Below the pieces are notes generated by a model, which saw nothing but the letters and a program-made list of their open reading frames with translations, did not search any database and was not told the origin of the DNA. A program made the position numbers and the translations under genes. Positions 2,579-49,992 of a DNA stretch of 64,000 bases are shown piece after piece. The stretch is taken from assembly GCA_051313645.2 (NCBI GenBank), contig JBNRSN020000027.1, positions 58,714,001-58,778,000 of the forward strand. Direction: 5' to 3'. This DNA is from Centroscyllium fabricii. Lineage: Eukaryota. Numbering within the stretch: the first letter of the stretch is position 1; every line of letters starts with the position of its first letter.

Positions 2579-3435
2579 CATAGAAACATAGAAGATAGGA
2601 GCAGGAGTAGGTCATTCGGCCCCTCGAGCCTGCTCCGCCATTCAATGCGATCATGGCTGATCATCCAAATTCAGTACCCTGTCCCTGCCTTCTCCCCATA
2701 TCCCTTGATCCCTTTAGCCTTAAGAAATAAATCTAACTCCTTCTTGGATATATTTAATGAATTGGCCTCTACTGCCTTCTGTGGTAGAGAATTCAACAGG
2801 TTCACCACTCTCTGGGTGAAGAAATTCCTCCTCATCTCTGTCCTAAATGGCTTTCCCCTTATCCTTAGACTGTGACCCCTGGTTCTGGACTCCCCCGCCA
2901 TCGGGAACATCCTTCCTGCATCTAGTCTGTCCAGTCCTGTTAAGAGTTTTATAAGTTTCAATGAGATCCCTCTCATTCTTCTAAACTCCAGCGAGTATAA
3001 GCCCAATTGACCCAATCTCTCCTCATGCGTCATTCCTGCCATCCCAGGTATCAGCCTGGTGAATCTTCGCTGCACTCCCTCCATGGCAAGAACATCCTTC
3101 CTCAGATAAGGCGACCAAAACTGCACACAATACTCAAGATGTGGGCTCACCAAGGCCCTGTACAACTGCAACAAGACATCCTTGTTCCTGTACTCAAACC
3201 CTCTCGCTACGAAAGCCAACATACCATTTGTCTTCTTAACCGCCTGTTGCACCTGCATGCTTACCTTCAGCGACTGGTGCACAAGGACGCCCAGGTCTCG
3301 TTGCACTTCCCCTTCTCCCAATCTATTGCCATTCAGATAATAATCTGCCTTCCTGTTTTTGCCAGCAAAGTGGATAACCTCGCGGTATCCACATTATACT
3401 GCATCTGCCACGCTTCTGCCCAATCACCCAACCTG
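2579..3435 (-). mobile_element. CR1 LINE 3' fragment
   Basis: ORF 2671-3321 QRDLGVLVH...PHLEYCVQFWSPY...RRNFFTQRVVN plus tail. Confidence 0.95.
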
Positions 3436-4136
3436 ATGTCCACCAGATGTCCACACACACGTTCTAACAGGAATCACTGAATAGTGATCAGGAGCGGGAA
3501 TCCTGACTGATTTTCCCATTCCTAGCACAGGGGCACGGAGGCCAATTTTAGCACATTTTAAATCAATGTTTTAAATAGATTAGGAGTAAAAACAAAAGCA
3601 TTTTATTTCATGATATTTTTGGTTTTGCCCTATCCATTTTCAATTGTTTTCCTCTCCATGAATTTAACAGTAAAAGTGAATGCATAGGCATCTCCCTCCC
3701 TCTGGTTCTCCGACATCCCAGTGTTTCTAGTACGCAACAGGTAATGAAGATCGACTCAGGAAAATTTTGCCTGAAAGATGAGAAATCATTTTATTTCCTT
3801 TGGAGCACCGAAGGTTTGTATAATGAGTATAATTTCTTAATCATATCACTTTCTGTCCCTCATTAAAATGTACATTACAAAAATTTAACCACCTTTTAAT
3901 ATAAAAAATTAAAAGCGATAACCTATTTTGTAACTCTAATTGCTTCAATGGAAATAAGACAAGAATTCACAGCTGTGTGATTAAATCATAGGAAATATTC
4001 CCCACTTTGTATAACAAGAGACCCCCTGCTTGTCAGAGTTTGAAGAGCCAAGGTTTTCAGATGACATTTCAATAACTGGAACACAGCATTACAAATCCAT
4101 TCCCAACTTTACTGAAACAATTATTGAAATTATTAC

Positions 4137-4177
4137 CTTCAGGCCATGTATGTTCCGTTTCCCAGGTGGCTTGCAGG
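4137..4177 (-). CDS. MAP2K5: MAP2K5 (MEK5) internal coding exon, equivalent to human exon 5
   Basis: Minus strand tttcag|CCTGCAAG...CTGAAG|gtaata, 41 nt. With the phase-1 G it gives ACKPPGKRNIHGLK, versus recalled human ACKPPGERNIHGLK. Confidence 0.96.
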
Positions 4178-5130
4178 CTGAAACAGTAATTGACTAAATT
4201 GCAGAACACATCAGGGCCATTTACAAATTTGTTAAAAATGAATCATTTGAAAGAAATGAGACTGACACCAAAATTAGCAGCTGAAAATGATGGAAAAGGG
4301 GCTCAAAAGACTGTACAGGGAATTTTAAAAAAAATGTGATTCCATCTTGCAATATTGAACACTGAAAAACTGATATACAGTCTATATAAAAAGATATAAA
4401 GTATAAAATAAAGTATATAACACTCTATAAATACAAACATAAGCACAAAGAGCCAATCCATTTCAACCTTCATGTGTCAACCTTTTGTATCATTAAGAAA
4501 GCAGGTTAACCCTAACACATGGGTGAATAATATACGTATCTATAGAATCTATTGCTAGGATTCATGAATTGTAAACTGTAAGAGTAAAATTTAAAATGCT
4601 ATTAAAAAGAAAACAGGTTTTTATCTTTAATATTTTGCTGGAGCAGGTGAGTGGAGCACCTGCCACTTGCATTCGAACAGTAAAGAGAATCAATAAAAAG
4701 TTATGAAGAATTATAATCAAAATGTTCATTTTTTTGTCTGTATCTATTTTGGTGCTTTATTTAAACAAAAAGCTATTTTAAATGGAGTTCCGATAGCCTA
4801 ATATTTGGGGCGGGGAGGAAAGGCACGTCTCAGTTGAGTTACTGAGCACAACACTGAAGTACCGGTGGAGATGGTCCCGCTAACCCAAGGCATTTTCAAC
4901 AAAGATGGAATTGCAACCGTTATGTTAATTCCACTCCCCAACTCTGCTGGATGTAGCAACTTTTCTGAGGCAACTGCACCAATAAGGTCGCCACTCACGG
5001 TTTAAACAAGGGTATTTAAGGCAAAGGAATTAGAAATAAAAACACCAAGGTTATCTATGATTCTCAGTGAACAGAATCCTAAGTGGCGCGCCTTTTTTTT
5101 TTTTTTTAATAACGTCGAATCTAGGAACCG

Positions 5131-10537: not shown

Positions 10538-10607
10538 CTCGTGGATATATCTGCAGCGGCTCAATCATCTCTCCATTAACTTGCTGCTCTGTCACAGTAG
10601 TATAATA
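10538..10607 (-). CDS. MAP2K5: MAP2K5 (MEK5) internal coding exon, equivalent to human exon 4
   Basis: Minus strand ttttctag|TATTAT...CCACGAG|gtaaga, 70 nt. Translates YYTTVTEQQVNGEMIEPLQIYPR, matching recalled human MEK5 YYSTVMEQQVNGQLIEPLQIFPR. Ends in phase 1 and joins the next exon in frame. Confidence 0.96.
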
Positions 10608-32746: not shown

Positions 32747-33242
32747 AAAAAGTTAAAGCTTGTCCATTCCAGTGTAAGTGAATTTTTAATACCGCAATAA
32801 GTTTTAATTACTGCCAAACAACCTCTCTGGCACTGGACATTAACTTTTACACGTGTGGAGTCTCAGTCCTTCAAATTTTAATTATTGTTGGAGACTTTTA
32901 AAATTAAAAAATTTAAATCAAACTTTTTTTACTTATCCATTGTGTCTCTTCTATCTCTCCCTCTTAATCCCACCTTCTGCTCCCTTTCTTTATTTCGCTT
33001 TCTGTACATGATTTGGCATTGAATTAACTATTCTAACTTACACTTACTGCTTCGGACTCTGCGTGCCTCAGTAAGGATTTTTTCCAATCGGATTGGTTCA
33101 GGAGATCGATAGTTGCTTTTCTTGTTCACGCAGGTCCCAGACACCCAGCAGAGTGCCCTGCGCCAAAATGGCTTTCCAATCACAGCCAGTTGCAGTGCAA
33201 CAGCCCATCGAAAGTCTGTGGGCAAGTGTTAAATGTAATGAA

Positions 33243-33785
33243 TGCAAGAAGTCACACAACACCAGATTATAGTCCAACGGTTTTATTTTAAATCACAAGC
33301 TTTCGGAGCTTCTGCTCCTTCATCAGGTGAAAGAGAAGCTGACTTAAAGAACGCACATGTTTGATGAAGAGAGAAATCTGATATCTCCCACATCTCACCT
33401 CCGTAGAGAGCTAGACACATAAAGGCTTATTAACATATTTTAAGTGTTACATTTAAACATAGCACATATAGAGAAAGATAACAATGTGGTCTCTCCAGTT
33501 GTTTCACATCACACCTCAGCTGAGGGACATCAAAGCAGTCAAAGATTTTCCAACATATCAAAGGTTGCAGTCACAATGTTAGTCTGCTTTAAATCCCACA
33601 TGTGGGAGATATCAGATTTCTCTCTTCATCAAACATGTGCGTTCTTTAAGTCAGACTCTCTTTCACCTGACGAAGGGGCAGAAGCTCCGAAAGCTTGTGA
33701 TTTAAAATAAAACCGTTGGACTATAATCTGGTGTTGTGTGACTTCTTGCATTTGTCCACCCCAGTCCAACACCGGCACCTCCACA
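33243..33785 (+). mobile_element. Penelope-like element: terminal repeat plus inverted partial copy, 14-bp TSD
   Basis: TSD ttaaatgtaatgaa at 33229-33242 and 33786-33799; inverted repeat ~33243-33393 / ~33600-33750; hammerhead cores on both strands. Confidence 0.85.
33667..33705 (+). ncRNA. Candidate minimal hammerhead ribozyme core (Penelope-associated)
   Basis: CTGACGA-a-ggggc-agaa-gctcc-GAAA; the minus-strand copy at 33301-33326 has a perfect GGAGC/GCTCC stem II. Stems I and III are not clearly resolved. Confidence 0.55.
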
Positions 33786-39992: not shown

Positions 39993-40592
39993 ACATAGAA
40001 ACATAGAAAATAGGAGCAGGAGTAGGCCATTCGGCCCCTCGAGCCTGCTCCTCCATTCAATGAGTTCATGGCTGATCATCCAAACTCAGTACCCCGTACC
40101 TGCCTTCTCCCCATATCCCTTGATACCTTTAGCTCCAAGAAATATATCTAACTCCTTCTTGATTTTATTTTAATGCTTTGGCCTCCACTACATTCTGTGG
40201 TAGAGAATTCCACAAGTTTACCTCTCTCTGGGTGAAGAAATTCCTCCTCATCTCTGTCCTAAATGACTTACCCCTTATCCTTAATGTGGAGGTGCCGGTG
40301 TTGGACTGGGGTGGACAAATGCAAGAAGTCACACAACACCAGGTTATAGTCCAACAGTTTTATTTTAAATCACAAGCTTTCGGAGCGTCTGCCCTTTCGT
40401 CAGGTGAAAGAAAGCTTGTGATTTAAAATAAAACTGTTGGACTATAACCTGGTGTTGTGTGACTTCTTGCCCTTATCCTTAGACTGTGCCCCCCTGGTTC
40501 TGGACTCCCCGACCATCGGGAACATCCTTCCTACATCTAGTTTGTCCAGTCCTGTCAGAATTTTATAAGTTTCGATGAGATCCCCTCTCATG
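39993..40592 (-). mobile_element. CR1 3' fragment containing a Penelope insertion
   Basis: CR1 C-terminus and tail split at cccttatcctta. Confidence 0.88.
40284..40469 (-). mobile_element. Penelope-like terminal repeat plus inverted partial copy, 12-bp TSD
   Basis: TSD cccttatcctta at 40272-40283 and 40470-40481; hammerhead core at 40378-40403 on the minus strand. Confidence 0.85.
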
Positions 40593-41319: not shown

Positions 41320-41850
41320 GATAAGAACATAAGAAATAGGAGCAGGAGTCGGCCAATCGGCCCCTCGAGCCTGCTCTACCATTCAACAAGATCATGGCTG
41401 ATCTGATCCTAACCTCAATTTTATTTTTACTCTCCACCCCGCCCAGACCCATGTGATCACCTGGGAGAGGCGAAAAACCAGATAAAAAACCCAGTAGCCA
41501 ATTTGGGAGAAAGAAATCAGGAAAGTTCCTCTCCGACCCATCTAGGCAATCGAAAACTGGTCCAGGAGATCACATGGCCAATCTGAACCTAGCCTCACGT
41601 CCACTTACCTGCCCGCTCACCATAACCCCTAATTCTCTTTAATCCCAGGAAACTGTCTATCTCAGTTTGAAATTTATTCAACGTAGTAGCTTCCACAGCT
41701 CTCTGGGGCAGCAAATTCCACAGCCGCACCACCCTCTGAGTGAAGATGTTTCTCCTCATCTCAGTTTTGAAATGGCAGCCCCTTATTTTAAGATTATGCC
41801 CCCTAGTCCTAGTTTCACCCACCATTGGGAACATCCTCACCGCATCCATT
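41320..41850 (-). mobile_element. CR1 3' fragment, structured-UTR subfamily
   Basis: DAVRMFPMVGETRTRGHNLKIRGCHFKTEMRR; same UTR as 29838-30105. Confidence 0.93.
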
Positions 41851-43527
41851 TCATCCATAAAACAGTCAGATGCTGCCATCATACTGAAGGTTCCCACTTT
41901 GCAGGTGGGACCAGTTGATGCCGCAATGGTTGAAAAGGAGATTCATCCCTCAATCGCAACCACTTCAACGGAAATCCTTCAAAGAAATAAAACACTTGAG
42001 GAACAGATGGGAACCTCAAAGTTAATATGACAACGTCCCAGTCTGGGGGCGGAAGAGAAAGAGAGATTTAGAAAATAGCGTAGGCCCTGGATCAGCTCGC
42101 TTCAAATCAGAGTTGTCCTGCTGGCCACCAGTTAAGCTCACGCTGTGTCTCCAATAGACAAGGTATATTTGTGACTAAAAAATGTTTTCCATAGATGGGG
42201 ATGGGGAGGAGAGGAGAGTGATTTTAACATAACATACTCTAGACTTGTTCCCCCTTTAATGGTTTACTATTCAGAGAAAGTATTGTTCCTTCAATAGTAA
42301 GACTGGCTGAGAGTTATACTGCAGATCAACACATAAAGTGGCTTACATGCCAACACAAACCACAACAGACCTTTAGTGGTTTTCCTAAATTACAACAGTG
42401 ACTACACAGCTAAAGTATTTCCTTGGCTAAGAAGCACTTTCGGGCATTCCGAGGCTGCGAAAGGCGCTATAAAAATGCAATTTCATTCTTTATGAGTCAG
42501 TAGAATCTGGAGATTCGACTACAGAATTGAATTAATTCCTTGGGATTGATTCCAATTCACATAGTTTTTACATGTGGGTTTTTATTCTGTTTTGGTCAAT
42601 TAATATGCCATCAGCGAGCTCCATATTCTGGGTCTGTGGTGATCTTCTCACAGAGGATATACGATTACAATGTCATTACTGCAAGCTTAAAAAAATTATA
42701 ACCTGCAACTGATTTTCAGCACACTCCATGCCCATTGTACATGAATTAAACACAGTAGAACATTAACCATTACAATATTTGTTAAGTAACCGTACATTAG
42801 AATGTTAGTTTAATCTATTATTTGACTGGAATAAATATACTTGTACAAATAAAAACAAAATTGTTTCAGCATCATACTGCAAAAACTCTCAATCCATCCG
42901 TTACGTGCAAGACCCATATTTCTTCTTTAGCGCCTGCAAAAAATGATCGCCTACTATCAGCGTGTCCCCATCAGAGAAATAATGGGCTTGAGTATCCTAT
43001 AAGGAATACAAGCTATTAAAATAATTCATAATGCCTTTATCACAAGACTGGAGTACTCACTGTCCATTGCTCTGGGAATACCAGAGCACTGCTCAATGAT
43101 GTAGATGATGAACAAAGCCCTACAATAAGCAAGATGAGAATCAGCTGATCCATAAAAAAGGAATAGGCCAGAGAAACCATAGTAGACATTATTCATATAA
43201 CTGCTGTATGCAATTTATTAACCAGTCTTTAGCAAAGGTGTCAGTAATATATATAGACCAATAGATAGGAGACCGGTCTTCCTATGAAGAATACAAACAA
43301 CTTGACAAGAGCAGAAAGGTGATGGTACTGTAATGCCAACAGACTAGAAGGTATGAGACAAGGATTTTTTTTCAATTGAGAGAGCTGGGCGAAGGGCCAA
43401 GGCCCATTGTGCAGGACAGCACCACGCTAGAAAAGAGCTGCAGAGTAGTGATTTGGTACCAACAAGTTTGGGTTGTAAAAAATGGAAATGAGAAGGGAGA
43501 GGGGCAGAGGAAGCTGGGGGGGGGGAA

Positions 43528-43868
43528 GCGAGAGAGAGAGAGCGAGAGAGACGGGGCGAGAGAGAGAGAGCGAGAGAGACGGGGCGAGAGAGGAGAGAGA
43601 GAGACGGGGCGAGAGAGAGAGAGAGAGACGGGGCGAGAGAGAGAGAGACGGGGCGAGAGAGAGAGAGAGAGAGAGACGGGGCGAGAGAGAGAGAGACGGG
43701 GCGAGAGAGAGAGAAACGGGGCGAGAGAGAGAGAGAGACGGGGCGAGAGAGAGAGAGAGACGGGGCGAGAGAGAGAGAGAGAGAGAGACGGGGCGAGAGA
43801 GAGAGAGAGAGAGACGGGGCGAGAGAGAGAGAGAGAGAGAGAGACGGGGCGAGAGAGAGAGAGAGAGA
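43528..43868. repeat. CGGGGC(GA)n satellite, left block
   Basis: Tandem acggggc(ga)n units with variable GA length. Confidence 0.97.
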
Positions 43869-43891
43869 CACCTTTGCTAAAGACTGGTTAA

Positions 43892-44557
43892 TAAATTGCT
43901 ACCGCTCCCTAGAAAGAGACTATAAATTGGCAGACTATCTTTCAACTGTCAGAAATACAAAGCAGAGACAGACCCTCACCAGGTACAGATTAAGTGACCA
44001 CCAGTTGGCAGTCGAAAAAGGAAGACAGAAGAAATCCTGGCAGCAAAGAGAAAATAGAATATGCGGTCACTGTTCGACGGATGAGGTTGAAACAGAGATG
44101 CACTTCCTCCTAAATTGCAAAAAATTCGAAAAAACAAGGAATTCATACTTTGACAAACTGGACCTAGAAATCCCAGATTTCAAAGAATTAGATGATACCC
44201 TAAAACTAAAAATAATCCTTGGCGAAGGAGACAGGGCACAGCTTGGTGCACAATACGTAACAGCATGCCACAACCTGAGGGAAAATGACTGACCAACATG
44301 CACACATGCACGCACACACAGGCAGAAAAGAACCAACATTGACTGTGATATTGTTTGAAACTGCATTTAAGCTATATATCTACTGATATTACTACGGATG
44401 CGGTTATGTATACTCTGTTAGTACTGTTGTTATTACGTCTAAAAATGTACTTTATATGTATGTTACAAATGTATTTTTGTGTATGTAAAAAACGCTTTGG
44501 CAACAAGGGTTGATGCCATTCATGCCAATAAAGCTATTTGAATTTGAATTTGAATTT
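43892..44557 (+). mobile_element. 5'-truncated non-LTR retrotransposon, RTE-X-like, with C-terminal zinc knuckle and (TTTGAA)n tail
   Basis: Open frame NCYRSLERDYKLADYL...YRLSDHQLAVEKGR...RICGHC-x9-H-FLLN-C, stop at 44292; ccaataaagc(tatttgaa)(tttgaa)n runs into the gap. Confidence 0.85.
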
Positions 44558-44702
44558 NNNNNNNNNNNNNNNNNNNNNNNNNNNNNNNNNNNNNNNNNNN
44601 NNNNNNNNNNNNNNNNNNNNNNNNNNNNNNNNNNNNNNNNNNNNNNNNNNNNNNNNNNNNNNNNNNNNNNNNNNNNNNNNNNNNNNNNNNNNNNNNNNNN
44701 NN
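44558..44702. other. Assembly gap (145 N)
   Basis: Run of n characters. Confidence 0.99.
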
Positions 44703-47700
44703 CGGGGCGAGAGAGAGAGAGAGACGGGGCGAGAGAGAGAGAGAGACGGGGCGAGAGAGAGAGAGAGACGGGGCGAGAGAGAGAGAGAGACGGGGCGAGA
44801 GAGAGAGAGAGACGGGGCGAGAGAGAGAGAGAGACGGGGCGAGAGAGAGAGAGACGGGGCGAGAGAGAGAGAGACGGGGCGAGAGAGAGAGAGACGGGGC
44901 GAGAGAGAGAGAGACGGGGCGAGAGAGAGAGAGACGGGGCGAGAGAGAGAGAGACGGGGCGAGAGAGAGAGAGACGGGGCGAGAGAGAGAGAGACGGGGC
45001 GAGAGAGAGAGAGAGACGGGGCGAGAGAGAGAGAGAGACGGGGCGAGAGAGAGAGAGAGAGACGGGGCGAGAGAGAGAGAGAGACGGGGCGAGAGAGAGA
45101 GAGAGAGACGGGGCGAGAGAGAGAGAGAGACGGGGCGAGAGAGAGAGAGAGAGACGGGGCGAGAGAGAGAGAGAGACGGGGCGAGAGAGAGAGAGACGGG
45201 GCGAGAGAGAGAGAGAGACGGGGCGAGAGAGAGAGAGACGGGGCGAGAGAGAGAGAGACGGGGCGAGAGAGAGAGAGACGGGGCGAGAGAGAGAGAGACG
45301 GGGCGAGAGAGAGAGAGACGGGGCGAGAGAGAGAGAGACGGCGGGGCGAGAGAGAGAGAGACGGGGCGAGAGAGAGAGAGACGGGGCGAGAGAGAGAGAG
45401 ACGGGGCGAGAGAGAGAGAGACGGGGCGAGAGAGAGAGAGACGGGGCGAGAGAGAGAGAGACGGGGCGAGAGAGAGAGAGACGGGGCGAGAGAGAGAGAG
45501 ACGGGGCGAGAGAGAGAGAGACGGGGCGAGAGAGAGAGAGACGGGGCGAGAGAGAGAGAGACGGGGCGAGAGAGAGAGAGACGGGGCGAGAGAGAGAGAG
45601 ACGGGGCGAGAGAGAGAGAGACGGGGCGAGAGAGAGAGAGACGGGGCGAGAGAGAGAGAGACGGGGCGAGAGAGAGAGAGACGGGGCGAGAGAGAGAGAG
45701 ACGGGGCGAGAGAGAGAGAGACGGGGCGAGAGAGAGAGAGACGGGGCGAGAGAGAGAGAGACGGGGCGAGAGAGAGAGAGACGGGGCGAGAGAGAGAGAG
45801 AGACGGGGCGAGAGAGAGAGAGACGGGGCGAGAGAGAGAGAGACGGGGCGAGAGAGAGAGAGACGGGGCGAGAGAGAGAGAGACGGGGCGAGAGAGAGAG
45901 AGACGGGGCGAGAGAGAGAGAGACGGGGCGAGAGAGAGAGAGACGGGGCGAGAGAGAGAGAGACGGGGCGAGAGAGAGAGAGACGGGGCGAGAGAGAGAG
46001 AGACGGGGCGAGAGAGAGAGAGACGGGGCGAGAGAGAGAGAGACGGGGCGAGAGAGAGAGAGACGGGGCGAGAGAGAGAGAGACGGGGCGAGAGAGAGAG
46101 AGACGGGGCGAGAGAGAGAGAGACGGGGCGAGAGAGAGAGAGACGGGGCGAGAGAGAGAGAGACGGGGCGAGAGAGAGAGAGACGGGGCGAGAGAGAGAG
46201 AGACGGGGCGAGAGAGAGAGAGACGGGGCGAGAGAGAGAGAGACGGGGCGAGAGAGAGAGAGACGGGGCGAGAGAGAGAGAGACGGGGCGAGAGAGAGAG
46301 AGACGGGGCGAGAGAGAGAGAGACGGGGCGAGAGAGAGAGAGACGGGGCGAGAGAGAGAGAGACGGGGCGAGAGAGAGAGAGACGGGGCGAGAGAGAGAG
46401 AGACGGGGCGAGAGAGAGAGAGACGGGGCGAGAGAGAGAGAGACGGGGCGAGAGAGAGAGAGACGGGGCGAGAGAGAGAGAGACGGGGCGAGAGAGAGAG
46501 AGACGGGGCGAGAGAGAGAGAGACGGGGCGAGAGAGAGAGAGACGGGGCGAGAGAGAGAGAGACGGGGCGAGAGAGAGAGAGACGGGGCGAGAGAGAGAG
46601 AGACGGGGCGAGAGAGAGAGAGACGGGGCGAGAGAGAGAGAGACGGGGCGAGAGAGAGAGAGACGGGGCGAGAGAGAGAGAGACGGGGCGAGAGAGAGAG
46701 AGACGGGGCGAGAGAGAGAGAGACGGGGCGAGAGAGAGAGAGACGGGGCGAGAGAGAGAGAGACGGGGCGAGAGAGAGAGAGACGGGGCGAGAGAGAGAG
46801 AGACGGGGCGAGAGAGAGAGAGACGGGGCGAGAGAGAGAGAGACGGGGCGAGAGAGAGAGAGACGGGGCGAGAGAGAGAGAGACGGGGCGAGAGAGAGAG
46901 AGACGGGGCGAGAGAGAGAGAGACGGGGCGAGAGAGAGAGAGACGGGGCGAGAGAGAGAGAGACGGGGCGAGAGAGAGAGAGACGGGGCGAGAGAGAGAG
47001 AGACGGGGCGAGAGAGAGAGAGACGGGGCGAGAGAGAGAGAGACGGGGCGAGAGAGAGAGAGACGGGGCGAGAGAGAGAGAGACGGGGCGAGAGAGAGAG
47101 AGACGGGGCGAGAGAGAGAGAGACGGGGCGAGAGAGAGAGAGACGGGGCGAGAGAGAGAGAGACGGGGCGAGAGAGAGAGAGACGGGGCGAGAGAGAGAG
47201 AGACGGGGCGAGAGAGAGAGAGACGGGGCGAGAGAGAGAGAGACGGGGCGAGAGAGAGAGAGACGGGGCGAGAGAGAGAGAGACGGGGCGAGAGAGAGAG
47301 AGACGGGGCGAGAGAGAGAGAGACGGGGCGAGAGAGAGAGAGACGGGGCGAGAGAGAGAGAGACGGGGCGAGAGAGAGAGAGACGGGGCGAGAGAGAGAG
47401 AGACGGGGCGAGAGAGAGAGAGACGGGGCGAGAGAGAGAGAGACGGGGCGAGAGAGAGAGAGACGGGGCGAGAGAGAGAGAGACGGGGCGAGAGAGAGAG
47501 AGAGACGGGGCGAGAGAGAGAGAGACGGGGCGAGAGAGAGAGAGACGGGGCGAGAGAGAGAGAGACGGGGCGAGAGAGAGAGAGACGGGGCGAGAGAGAG
47601 AGAGACGGGGCGAGAGAGAGAGAGACGGGGCGAGAGAGAGAGAGACGGGGCGAGAGAGAGAGAGACGGGGCGAGAGAGAGAGAGACGGGGCGAGAGAGAG

Positions 47701-49347
47701 AGAGACGGGGCGAGAGAGAGAGAGACGGGGCGAGAGAGAGAGAGACGGGGCGAGAGAGAGAGAGACGGGGCGAGAGAGAGAGAGACGGGGCGAGAGAGAG
47801 AGAGACGGGGCGAGAGAGAGAGAGAGACGGGGCGAGAGAGAGAGAGAGACGGGGCGAGAGAGAGAGAGAGACGGGGCGAGAGAGAGAGAGAGACGGGGCG
47901 AGAGAGAGAGAGAGACGGGGCGAGAGAGAGAGAGAGACGGGGCGAGAGAGAGAGAGAGACGGGGCGAGAGAGAGAGAGAGACGGGGCGAGAGAGAGAGAG
48001 ACGGGGCGAGAGAGAGAGAGACGGGGCGAGAGAGAGAGAGAGACGGGGCGAGAGAGAGAGAGACGGGGCGAGAGAGAGAGAGACGGGGCGAGAGAGAGAG
48101 AGAGACGGGGCGAGAGAGAGAGAGAGACGGGGCGAGAGAGAGAGAGAGACGGGGCGAGAGAGAGAGAGAGACGGGGCGAGAGAGAGAGAGAGAGACGGGG
48201 CGAGAGAGAGAGAGAGACGGGGCGAGAGAGAGAGAGAGACGGGGCGAGAGAGAGAGAGAGACGGGGCGAGAGAGAGAGAGAGACGGGGCGAGAGAGAGAG
48301 AGAGACGGGGCAGAGAGAGAGAGAGAGACGGGGCGAGAGAGAGAGAGAGACGGGGCGAGAGAGAGAGAGAGACGGGGCAAGAGAGAGAGAGAGAGACGGG
48401 GCGAGAGAGAGAGAGAGACGGGGCGAGAGAGAGAGAGAGACGGGGCGAGAGAGAGAGAGAGACGGGGCGAGAGAGAGAGAGAGACGGGGCGAGAGAGAGA
48501 GAGAGACGGGGCGAGAGAGAGAGAGAGACGGGGCGAGAGAGAGAGAGAGACGGGGCGAGAGAGAGAGAGAGACGGGGCGAGAGAGAGAGAGAGACGGGGC
48601 GAGAGAGAGAGAGAGACGGGGCGAGAGAGAGAGAGAGACGGGGCGAGAGAGAGAGAGAGACGGGGCGAGAGAGAGAGAGAGACGGGGCGAGAGAGAGAGA
48701 GAGACGGGGCGAGAGAGAGAGAGAGACGGGGCGAGAGAGAGAGAGAGACGGGGCGAGAGAGAGAGAGAGACGGGGCGAGAGAGAGAGAGAGACGGGGCGA
48801 GAGAGAGAGAGAGCGAGAGAGAGAGAGAGACGGGGCGAGAGAGAGAGAGAGACGGGGCAAGAGAGAGAGAGAGAGACGGGGCGAGAGAGAGAGAGAGAGA
48901 CGGGGCAAGAGAGAGAGAGACGGGGCAAGAGAGAGAGAGAGACGGGGCAAGAGAGAGAGAGAGACGGGGCGAGAGAGAGAGAGACGGGGCAAGAGAGAGA
49001 GAGACGGGAAGAGAGGGAGAGAGAGACGGGGAGAGAGGGTGAGAGAGAGTGAGGGAGAGAGAGAGTGAGAGAGAGAGTGAGAGAGAGACGGGGAGAGAGG
49101 GTGAGAGAGAGTGAGAGAGAGAGTGAGAGAGACAGGGAGAGAGACAGGGAGAGAGACAGACGGGGCGAGAGAGAGAGAGAGAGAGACGGGGCGAGAGAGA
49201 GATGGGGAGAGAGAGGGGGAGCGGGGAGAGGAGGGGGGGAGAGGAGGGGGGGAGAGGAGGGTTGGAGAGGACGTGGGAGAGAAGAGAGGGAGAGGAGGGG
49301 GGAGAGAAGAGAGGGAGAGGAGGGGGGAGAGAGAAGGGGGAGAGGGG
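44703..49347. repeat. CGGGGC(GA)n satellite, main block, decaying into a purine-rich tail
   Basis: Nearly homogeneous 20-bp unit over ~45350-47810, mostly 22-bp units over ~47810-48900, degenerate GA/GGA sequence to ~49347. Confidence 0.98.
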
Positions 49348-49992
49348 ATATCAAATAGGCAATTTAAAAACATTCAGTTTTAGAAAACATTGAGATTTCT
49401 GACATGGCACAGCATGGAGAGTCTCAACACAATCATTGGGAAATGGAACACTTCCACGCTTGGCATCCAGTTTCACCATCAATTACTCCCAAGTTAATTA
49501 GAGCACAACCACATTACAGTTCCAACTATACTACCATTACAATGTGTCCAAACCTAACTTCAGTAGGCCCCTTTTGCCACAGAACCTGTGTGTGCTATTT
49601 TTAATTTCCTACACTAGTGGTCTTCAGGACTGGACTTAGTACCAATTGGTACTTAACCAGAAGTAGCTTTGTTACCCATTAGGAATTTGGATGAGCCTGC
49701 TTTAACTCATTTCACTGGGTCAGCCCACAACAGGGAAACAACTTTCTTCTCAGTCCAGCAGAGATTCCAACTCAGGTGACATAAGTGAAACAACACTGTG
49801 CTTACCCACTACACCACCGATTGAAAACAGCCCTGTTGTTTAGATAACTGGAAAATGAGAAAGGAAATTACTGTTCATAGAAACATATATAGAAACATAG
49901 AAGATAGGAGCAGGAAGAGGCCATTTGGCCCTTCGAGCCTGCTCCGCCATTCAATGAGATCATGGCTGATCATCCAAACCCAGTACCCCATA

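Follow-up and report, generated by a model that had tools for sequence, protein, structure and literature searches.

The closest described counterparts of the junction analysed here are human L1 insertions. The accessible part of PMC11702581 holds three insertions with inversions at the reciprocal end, and its Fig. S9C presents a truncated L1 with an inverted duplication, for which the authors propose resection, fold-back, displacement and ligation to the RT end. As we read the coordinates in that figure, the duplication measures about 27 nt and lies about 100-130 nt from the site, and a fold-back over about 900 nt is drawn in Fig. S9A of the same part. Our locus resembles the case of Fig. S9C, as far as this part describes it, in the truncated LINE, the short inverted upstream copy at the 5' junction and the intact source, but the published case is a human L1 in cultured cells with a distance of 100-130 nt, whereas here a non-L1 element at an assembly locus is accompanied by a copy from at least 286 nt away, across a GA minisatellite. 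Somatic L1 insertions likewise include three cases, and one combined case (0.3% and 0.1%), in which a foldback inverted duplication lies upstream of the target and is attributed to DNA polymerases (PMC10191854). These share with our locus the inverted duplication of upstream sequence and the extra DNA synthesis during resolution, although 52-220 bp were synthesised at the human somatic L1 insertions compared to about 30 nt here.

Templated insertions also occur in chimeric L1s, with 22 cases shorter than 250 bp in the available portion of 10.1101/2024.08.27.596794. There, too, a non-L1 local template was copied into the insertion, but it typically lay within 15 bp and the event is explained as cDNA-primed. 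Flank-templated junction inserts in a non-L1 vertebrate LINE are known from zebrafish L2, whose extra 5' nucleotides derive largely from flanking DNA (PMC4245944 and PMC4760211, accessible parts), although that element belongs to a different clade, L2. Further, R2 cDNA ends prime on cDNA or on nearby rDNA (PMC11371274, in the part available), and templated insertions made by polymerase theta are described in the accessible part of PMC12426944 as short, minimally primed and flank-copied, with intramolecular priming suggested. The latter resemble our junction in the short flank-derived insert and the minimal priming, but they are generally shorter than 25 bp, and the sequence at our junction does not identify the enzyme. 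Fold-back, the cDNA jump and the RNA jump are all already in print. The junction is likely an ordinary insertion-repair scar of a type already described, whose only novelty is that the element is not an L1 and that the copied DNA lies at least 286 nt away. Taken alone, the event is of minor importance: it adds a non-L1 element of a probable shark to the LINEs in which such scars are known, with a reach longer than in most published cases.

The inverted copy and its two joints

Within the 64-kb window (the whole stretch of DNA that was analysed), positions 43867-43899 are the exact reverse complement of 43210-43242, with 33 nt at 100% complementarity and 624 nt between the arms (Table 1). The preliminary description had claimed just such an exact inverted copy of nearby DNA, and apart from this pair the sequence is indeed absent from the window: the 33-mer has a single copy per strand, its 14-mers are found nowhere else in the window, and the probability of a chance match of the 27 inner letters over the window is ~3e-11. 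The 33-mer maps to the upstream flank in inverted orientation and the source copy is retained. This flank (42700-43530) has word sharing of 0.93, 0.93 and 0.76 with three runs of organism H. The copy also lies, as described earlier, between the GA satellite, which reaches 43869, and the truncated LINE ORF, whose family match begins at 43897. Its uniqueness within the window led us to reject a common repeat as its identity. A search of 41800-44560 against Rfam returned 0 matches at E up to 1, and the piece is likely without function.

Table 1. Coordinates of the features discussed, as positions in the window
Feature	Position	Strand	Remarks
Next MAP2K5 exon, likely	4134..4178	-	limits approximate; found by motif search
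MAP2K5 exon, N-terminal region	10538..10607	-	MAP2K5 structures, 3/3 PDB hits, E about 1e-7
Source of the copied sequence	43210..43242	+	unique host DNA, likely MAP2K5 intron
GA minisatellite, left part	43528..43869 (repeat search: to 43868)	+	unit (GA)n-C-GGGGC, 14 pieces, likely insertion target
Inverted 33-nt copy	43867..43899	+	GAC 43867-43869, core of 27 nt 43870-43896, TGC 43897-43899
LINE ORF 3' end, 5'-truncated APE-RT non-LTR retrotransposon	43897..44292	+	open to stop codon; C-terminal C-x2-C..H..C motif
LINE 3' UTR	44293..44557	+	AATAAA 44527-44532; tail (TTTGAA)3 44537-44554
Assembly gap, 145 N	44558..44702		hides LINE 3' junction and any target-site duplication
GA minisatellite, right part	44703..49348	+	20-nt unit, 217 copies, 96% matches, degenerate at its end

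The junction reads satellite-GAC, 27-nt core, TGC-LINE, with a 3-nt microhomology at each joint, which would arise by chance in roughly 1 in 64 cases per joint. Microhomology at both joints had been proposed before and is present, but the letters differ from those given then (ga and aattgc). Since the satellite unit is (GA)n-C-GGGGC, the letters common at the left joint are GAC and not GA alone, and because the LINE family reads E-C at the other joint, the exact common letters there are TGC rather than aattgc. The family letters upstream of 43897 encode ...Q-S-R-L-E followed by C-Y-R in six contigs of run X17 and four of run X19 among the loose ends listed before 43897, besides which there are 372 further loose ends. 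These contigs contradict the suggestion that aattgc continues the LINE protein in frame as N-C. Likewise taaattgc, which the preliminary description expected in the element, does not occur in the family, and the family's own upstream letters rule out that 6-8 nt are shared at the LINE joint. On the other hand, the expectation that the 33-mer would be lacking from the LINE family was borne out, with contigs matching only from 43897 and relatives differing upstream: in a protein alignment, all nine of nine relatives carry residues other than those of the window upstream of C-Y or L-Y. An origin of the 33-mer as LINE sequence or by a twin-priming inversion was ruled out by the relatives' proteins together with the family contigs.

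In the sequencing data, depth was 0 at 43845-43892 in four of four runs (X17, X18, X19 and X1; Logan contigs, not reads, with X17 and X19 being one sample), where 43845-43877 is masked as repeat and contigs drop rare variants. Neither this lack of contigs across the junction nor the zero depth that remains in X18 for the window's letter at 43958 is to be taken as absence. As for the hallmarks of target-primed reverse transcription, the 3' tail is present, the 3' junction falls inside the 145-N gap and the target is a repeat. Independently of the satellite, the local copy links the LINE to its left flank; this speaks against a scaffolding join on the left side and, for that side, supports the earlier claim of a true insertion. 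An assembly or library chimera near the contig end might be suspected given that the contig stops at the LINE tail before the gap, between long satellites. However, the parts fit together: both joints carry microhomology, the 3' tail is complete, the satellite is alike on both sides of the LINE, and the LINE family occurs beside GA runs elsewhere too. A simple read fold-back would also not be expected to leave a 27-nt local core flanked by two other sequences. The coherent anatomy makes a chimera quite improbable.

Proposed fold-back of the broken end and competing routes

The 33-mer is likely a repair scar of the LINE insertion, and the chances are about even that it arose from the broken upstream end folding back onto its own plus strand. 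The LINE would have entered the GA minisatellite by target-primed reverse transcription, a step that follows from LINE biology and of which truncation and tail are observed in the window, and cDNA synthesis would have stopped early. Resection of the upstream end, which by its standard polarity leaves the plus strand single-stranded on the upstream side, would then have exposed a strand ending in ...GAC. As the satellite is T-free (0 T in 339 nt of the plus strand of the left array), it offers the purine-rich end no partner, and this end might have looped back to prime on GTC at 43240-43242. About 30 nt would then have been copied leftwards by a repair polymerase, probably polymerase theta or the RT of the LINE itself. 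Once displaced, the new tail, now in minus-strand letters, would have paired with the cDNA end at TGC and a few imperfect positions, after which the gap was filled. The copied host DNA lies 286-625 nt upstream. The "minus-strand template" of the preliminary description would in that case be the newly made fold-back tail itself, with host RNA unnecessary. The earlier argument that the template must have been the minus strand thus fails, given that the upstream top strand, extended on its own plus strand, yields the same letters without any RNA. We favour fold-back because resection exposes the plus strand, the left array is T-free, and published cases with the same anatomy are explained likewise. 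Some observations speak against it: priming at 43240 would involve only 3 bp (-2.7 kcal/mol, rank 24 of 32 GTC sites), a nearer GTC at 43276 (-3.6) was left unused, and the reach of at least 286 nt exceeds the "within 15 bp" typical of templated L1 insertions in the available portion of 10.1101/2024.08.27.596794.

A template jump primed by the cDNA would yield letters identical to those of fold-back, so that the sequence cannot tell which strand was copied, and one event is insufficient to fix which strand primed. Here the cDNA end ...GCA would have paired with minus-strand letters at 43212 and been extended by 30 nt in the direction of the break, after which 3 bp would have linked it to the satellite end. 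We regard this as tenable but less probable than fold-back; the template would be DNA (a displaced strand in a D-loop or R-loop), which is unlikely, or RNA (nascent MAP2K5 pre-mRNA), which is decidedly unlikely. Priming energy slightly favours the cDNA jump, with -6.2 kcal/mol for the duplex at 43212 (rank 4, 5 or 8 of 46 TGC sites, depending on primer length) against -2.7. Yet the same better duplex also forms between a fold-back tail and the cDNA, which keeps it compatible with fold-back, and sites nearer to the break pair comparably or better (43506 with -6.6, 43421 with -6.1). For both the fold-back and the cDNA priming site, better and nearer sites of the same type exist. An imperfect likeness extends outside the copied part (40 columns, 95%), but it is within chance, since 12.6% of 3733 control positions reach its score, and we rejected it as proof of cDNA priming. 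The jump would further need the minus strand to be single-stranded where resection normally removes it, and the final joining of the two ends would depend on 3 bp. It has precedents in R2, whose cDNA 3' ends prime on nearby rDNA (PMC11371274, accessible part), in the pairing of growing cDNA with nearby DNA (10.1101/2024.08.27.596794, accessible part) and in one pre-mRNA co-insertion in an adenoma clone (PMC10191854).

Orientation bears on the RNA template in particular. The host gene lies on the minus strand, and the insert, being minus-strand sequence, has the sense of the host transcript. This agrees with a cDNA jump but is a one-in-two coincidence, expected one time in two under fold-back as well. 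No RNA-only mark (splice junction, editing or poly-A) was found in the insert, which is an exact contiguous genomic copy; at 33 nt it is too short for a missing mark to exclude an RNA template. Copying of host RNA is therefore possible and not required. That the RT of a LINE targeting GA repeats jumped to nascent MAP2K5 pre-mRNA and so fixed intron RNA in the germline seems improbable to us. If this were true and regular, the orientation of inserts would follow host transcription, and the many copies of the family would form a record of co-transcriptional template jumping.

Besides fold-back and the cDNA jump, the scar might be independent of retrotransposition: a longer LINE would have lost its 5' part to a later break within or beside the GA satellite, and MMEJ repair would have closed this break with a templated insert. 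Scars of the same type are published (PMC12426944, accessible part), and the window copy differs from its family at 11 coding positions, yet the two arms are identical. However, LINE copies are normally 5'-truncated, as further copies of this family also are. Identical arms are expected with a probability of 0.37-0.13 at 3-6% divergence, so that they do not date the event, and we hold a later break to be highly improbable.

The LINE family and its GA-rich surroundings

The window retains only the C-terminal end of the element, which may be RTE-X-like. Its remnant ORF matches zf-RVT with an E of 0.016, below the family cut-off, and RVT_1 and Exo_endo_phos were present in all three full-length relatives scanned. 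The RTEX clade is named in PMC5753468, where the accessible part gives no defining features. A search among longer proteins returned nine matches from 141 candidates, the best being 72% identical to a reverse transcriptase of Somniosus microcephalus (Greenland shark), and a salmonid relative reached 57%. The best named match points to a shark as the probable source of the window. Loci of relatives were confirmed for 0 of 212 candidates in a first metagenome scan, 0 of 78 in genome contigs and 14 of 208 in a second metagenome scan. The same 3' end (AATAAA, then a TTTGAA tail) is found in the metagenome loci L001 and L003. Near the first matched base of the 14 distant loci (boundaries from tblastn, with the match beginning no more than 60 nt from the contig start in five of the 14), a search for locally copied inserts returned self-hits only.

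The family is highly abundant in organism H, with 3425, 2593 and 3309 contigs aligned in three runs. Compared to the majority letter of the family, the window copy has 11 coding differences (5 synonymous and 6 not), a count drawn from 24 variant rows after leaving out minor variants, 3' UTR rows and 44289, where two alternative letters occur. Other copies are also truncated, as seen at contig joints. In organism A (run X1), 0 contigs aligned, possibly a false zero, despite word sharing of 0.45 with the flank. This contrast in abundance may be a lead for a recent lineage-specific burst or for horizontal transfer. With 2593-3425 contigs per run, a survey of 5' junctions in this family could separate DNA fold-back from cDNA or RNA jumping in a natural germline. 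Our literature search, mostly beyond subscription papers, found no work on this LINE family in sharks or on its GA preference.

Such a preference is suggested by the surroundings of other copies. A GA run precedes 44332 in one contig each of X17 and X18, and among the 14 distant loci two of the three recognisable tails run into GA-rich sequence. Since other copies adjoin GA runs in this way, the family likely prefers GA repeats. At three contig joints the LINE tail is followed by another truncated copy, with GAGA or GAT as the linker in two, and this head-to-tail stacking is as expected if the family re-targets GA repeats. The linkers between the tail (44557) and the next truncated copies read GAGA, GAT and GGTACAGA. 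To the right of the gap the satellite is the same as on the left and continues for ~4.6 kb. At 44703-49202 it is far more uniform than the 14 pieces left of the LINE, with 141 of 210 units having one length, which suggests a recent expansion or an assembly effect.

The host gene and other inverted pairs

The earlier assignment of MAP2K5 to the minus strand was confirmed by the exon at 10607-10538, which matches MAP2K5 structures and fixes the orientation of the host gene, and a second exon-like stretch lies near 4134-4178. A motif search found no exon upstream of 10607 within the window. The insertion site thus likely belongs to a single long MAP2K5 intron, in which the LINE is oriented antisense to the gene. 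At 43119-43061 on the minus strand, 91 nt from the source arm, a stretch of 59 nt has a good acceptor (pyrimidine run, TAG), a donor (GTGAGT) and two open frames, and does not match the MAP2K5 motifs tried. Several other organisms have 0.16-0.19 of the words of 42700-43530 in common, a figure of word sharing only and not of alignment. The stretch could be a conserved alternative or frame-shifting exon.

Two further inverted pairs occur in the window, one at 33241-33393 / 33600-33752 (153 nt at 97%) and the other at 40324 / 40429 (39 nt, exact). Both are of the same sequence family and look like inverted ends of a small repeat element, unrelated to the LINE junction. In the host pre-mRNA (43195-43915, minus strand), the two arms of the 33-nt pair are predicted to form a stem of at least 33 bp with a mostly unpaired loop (z of -5.8 against 20 shuffles).
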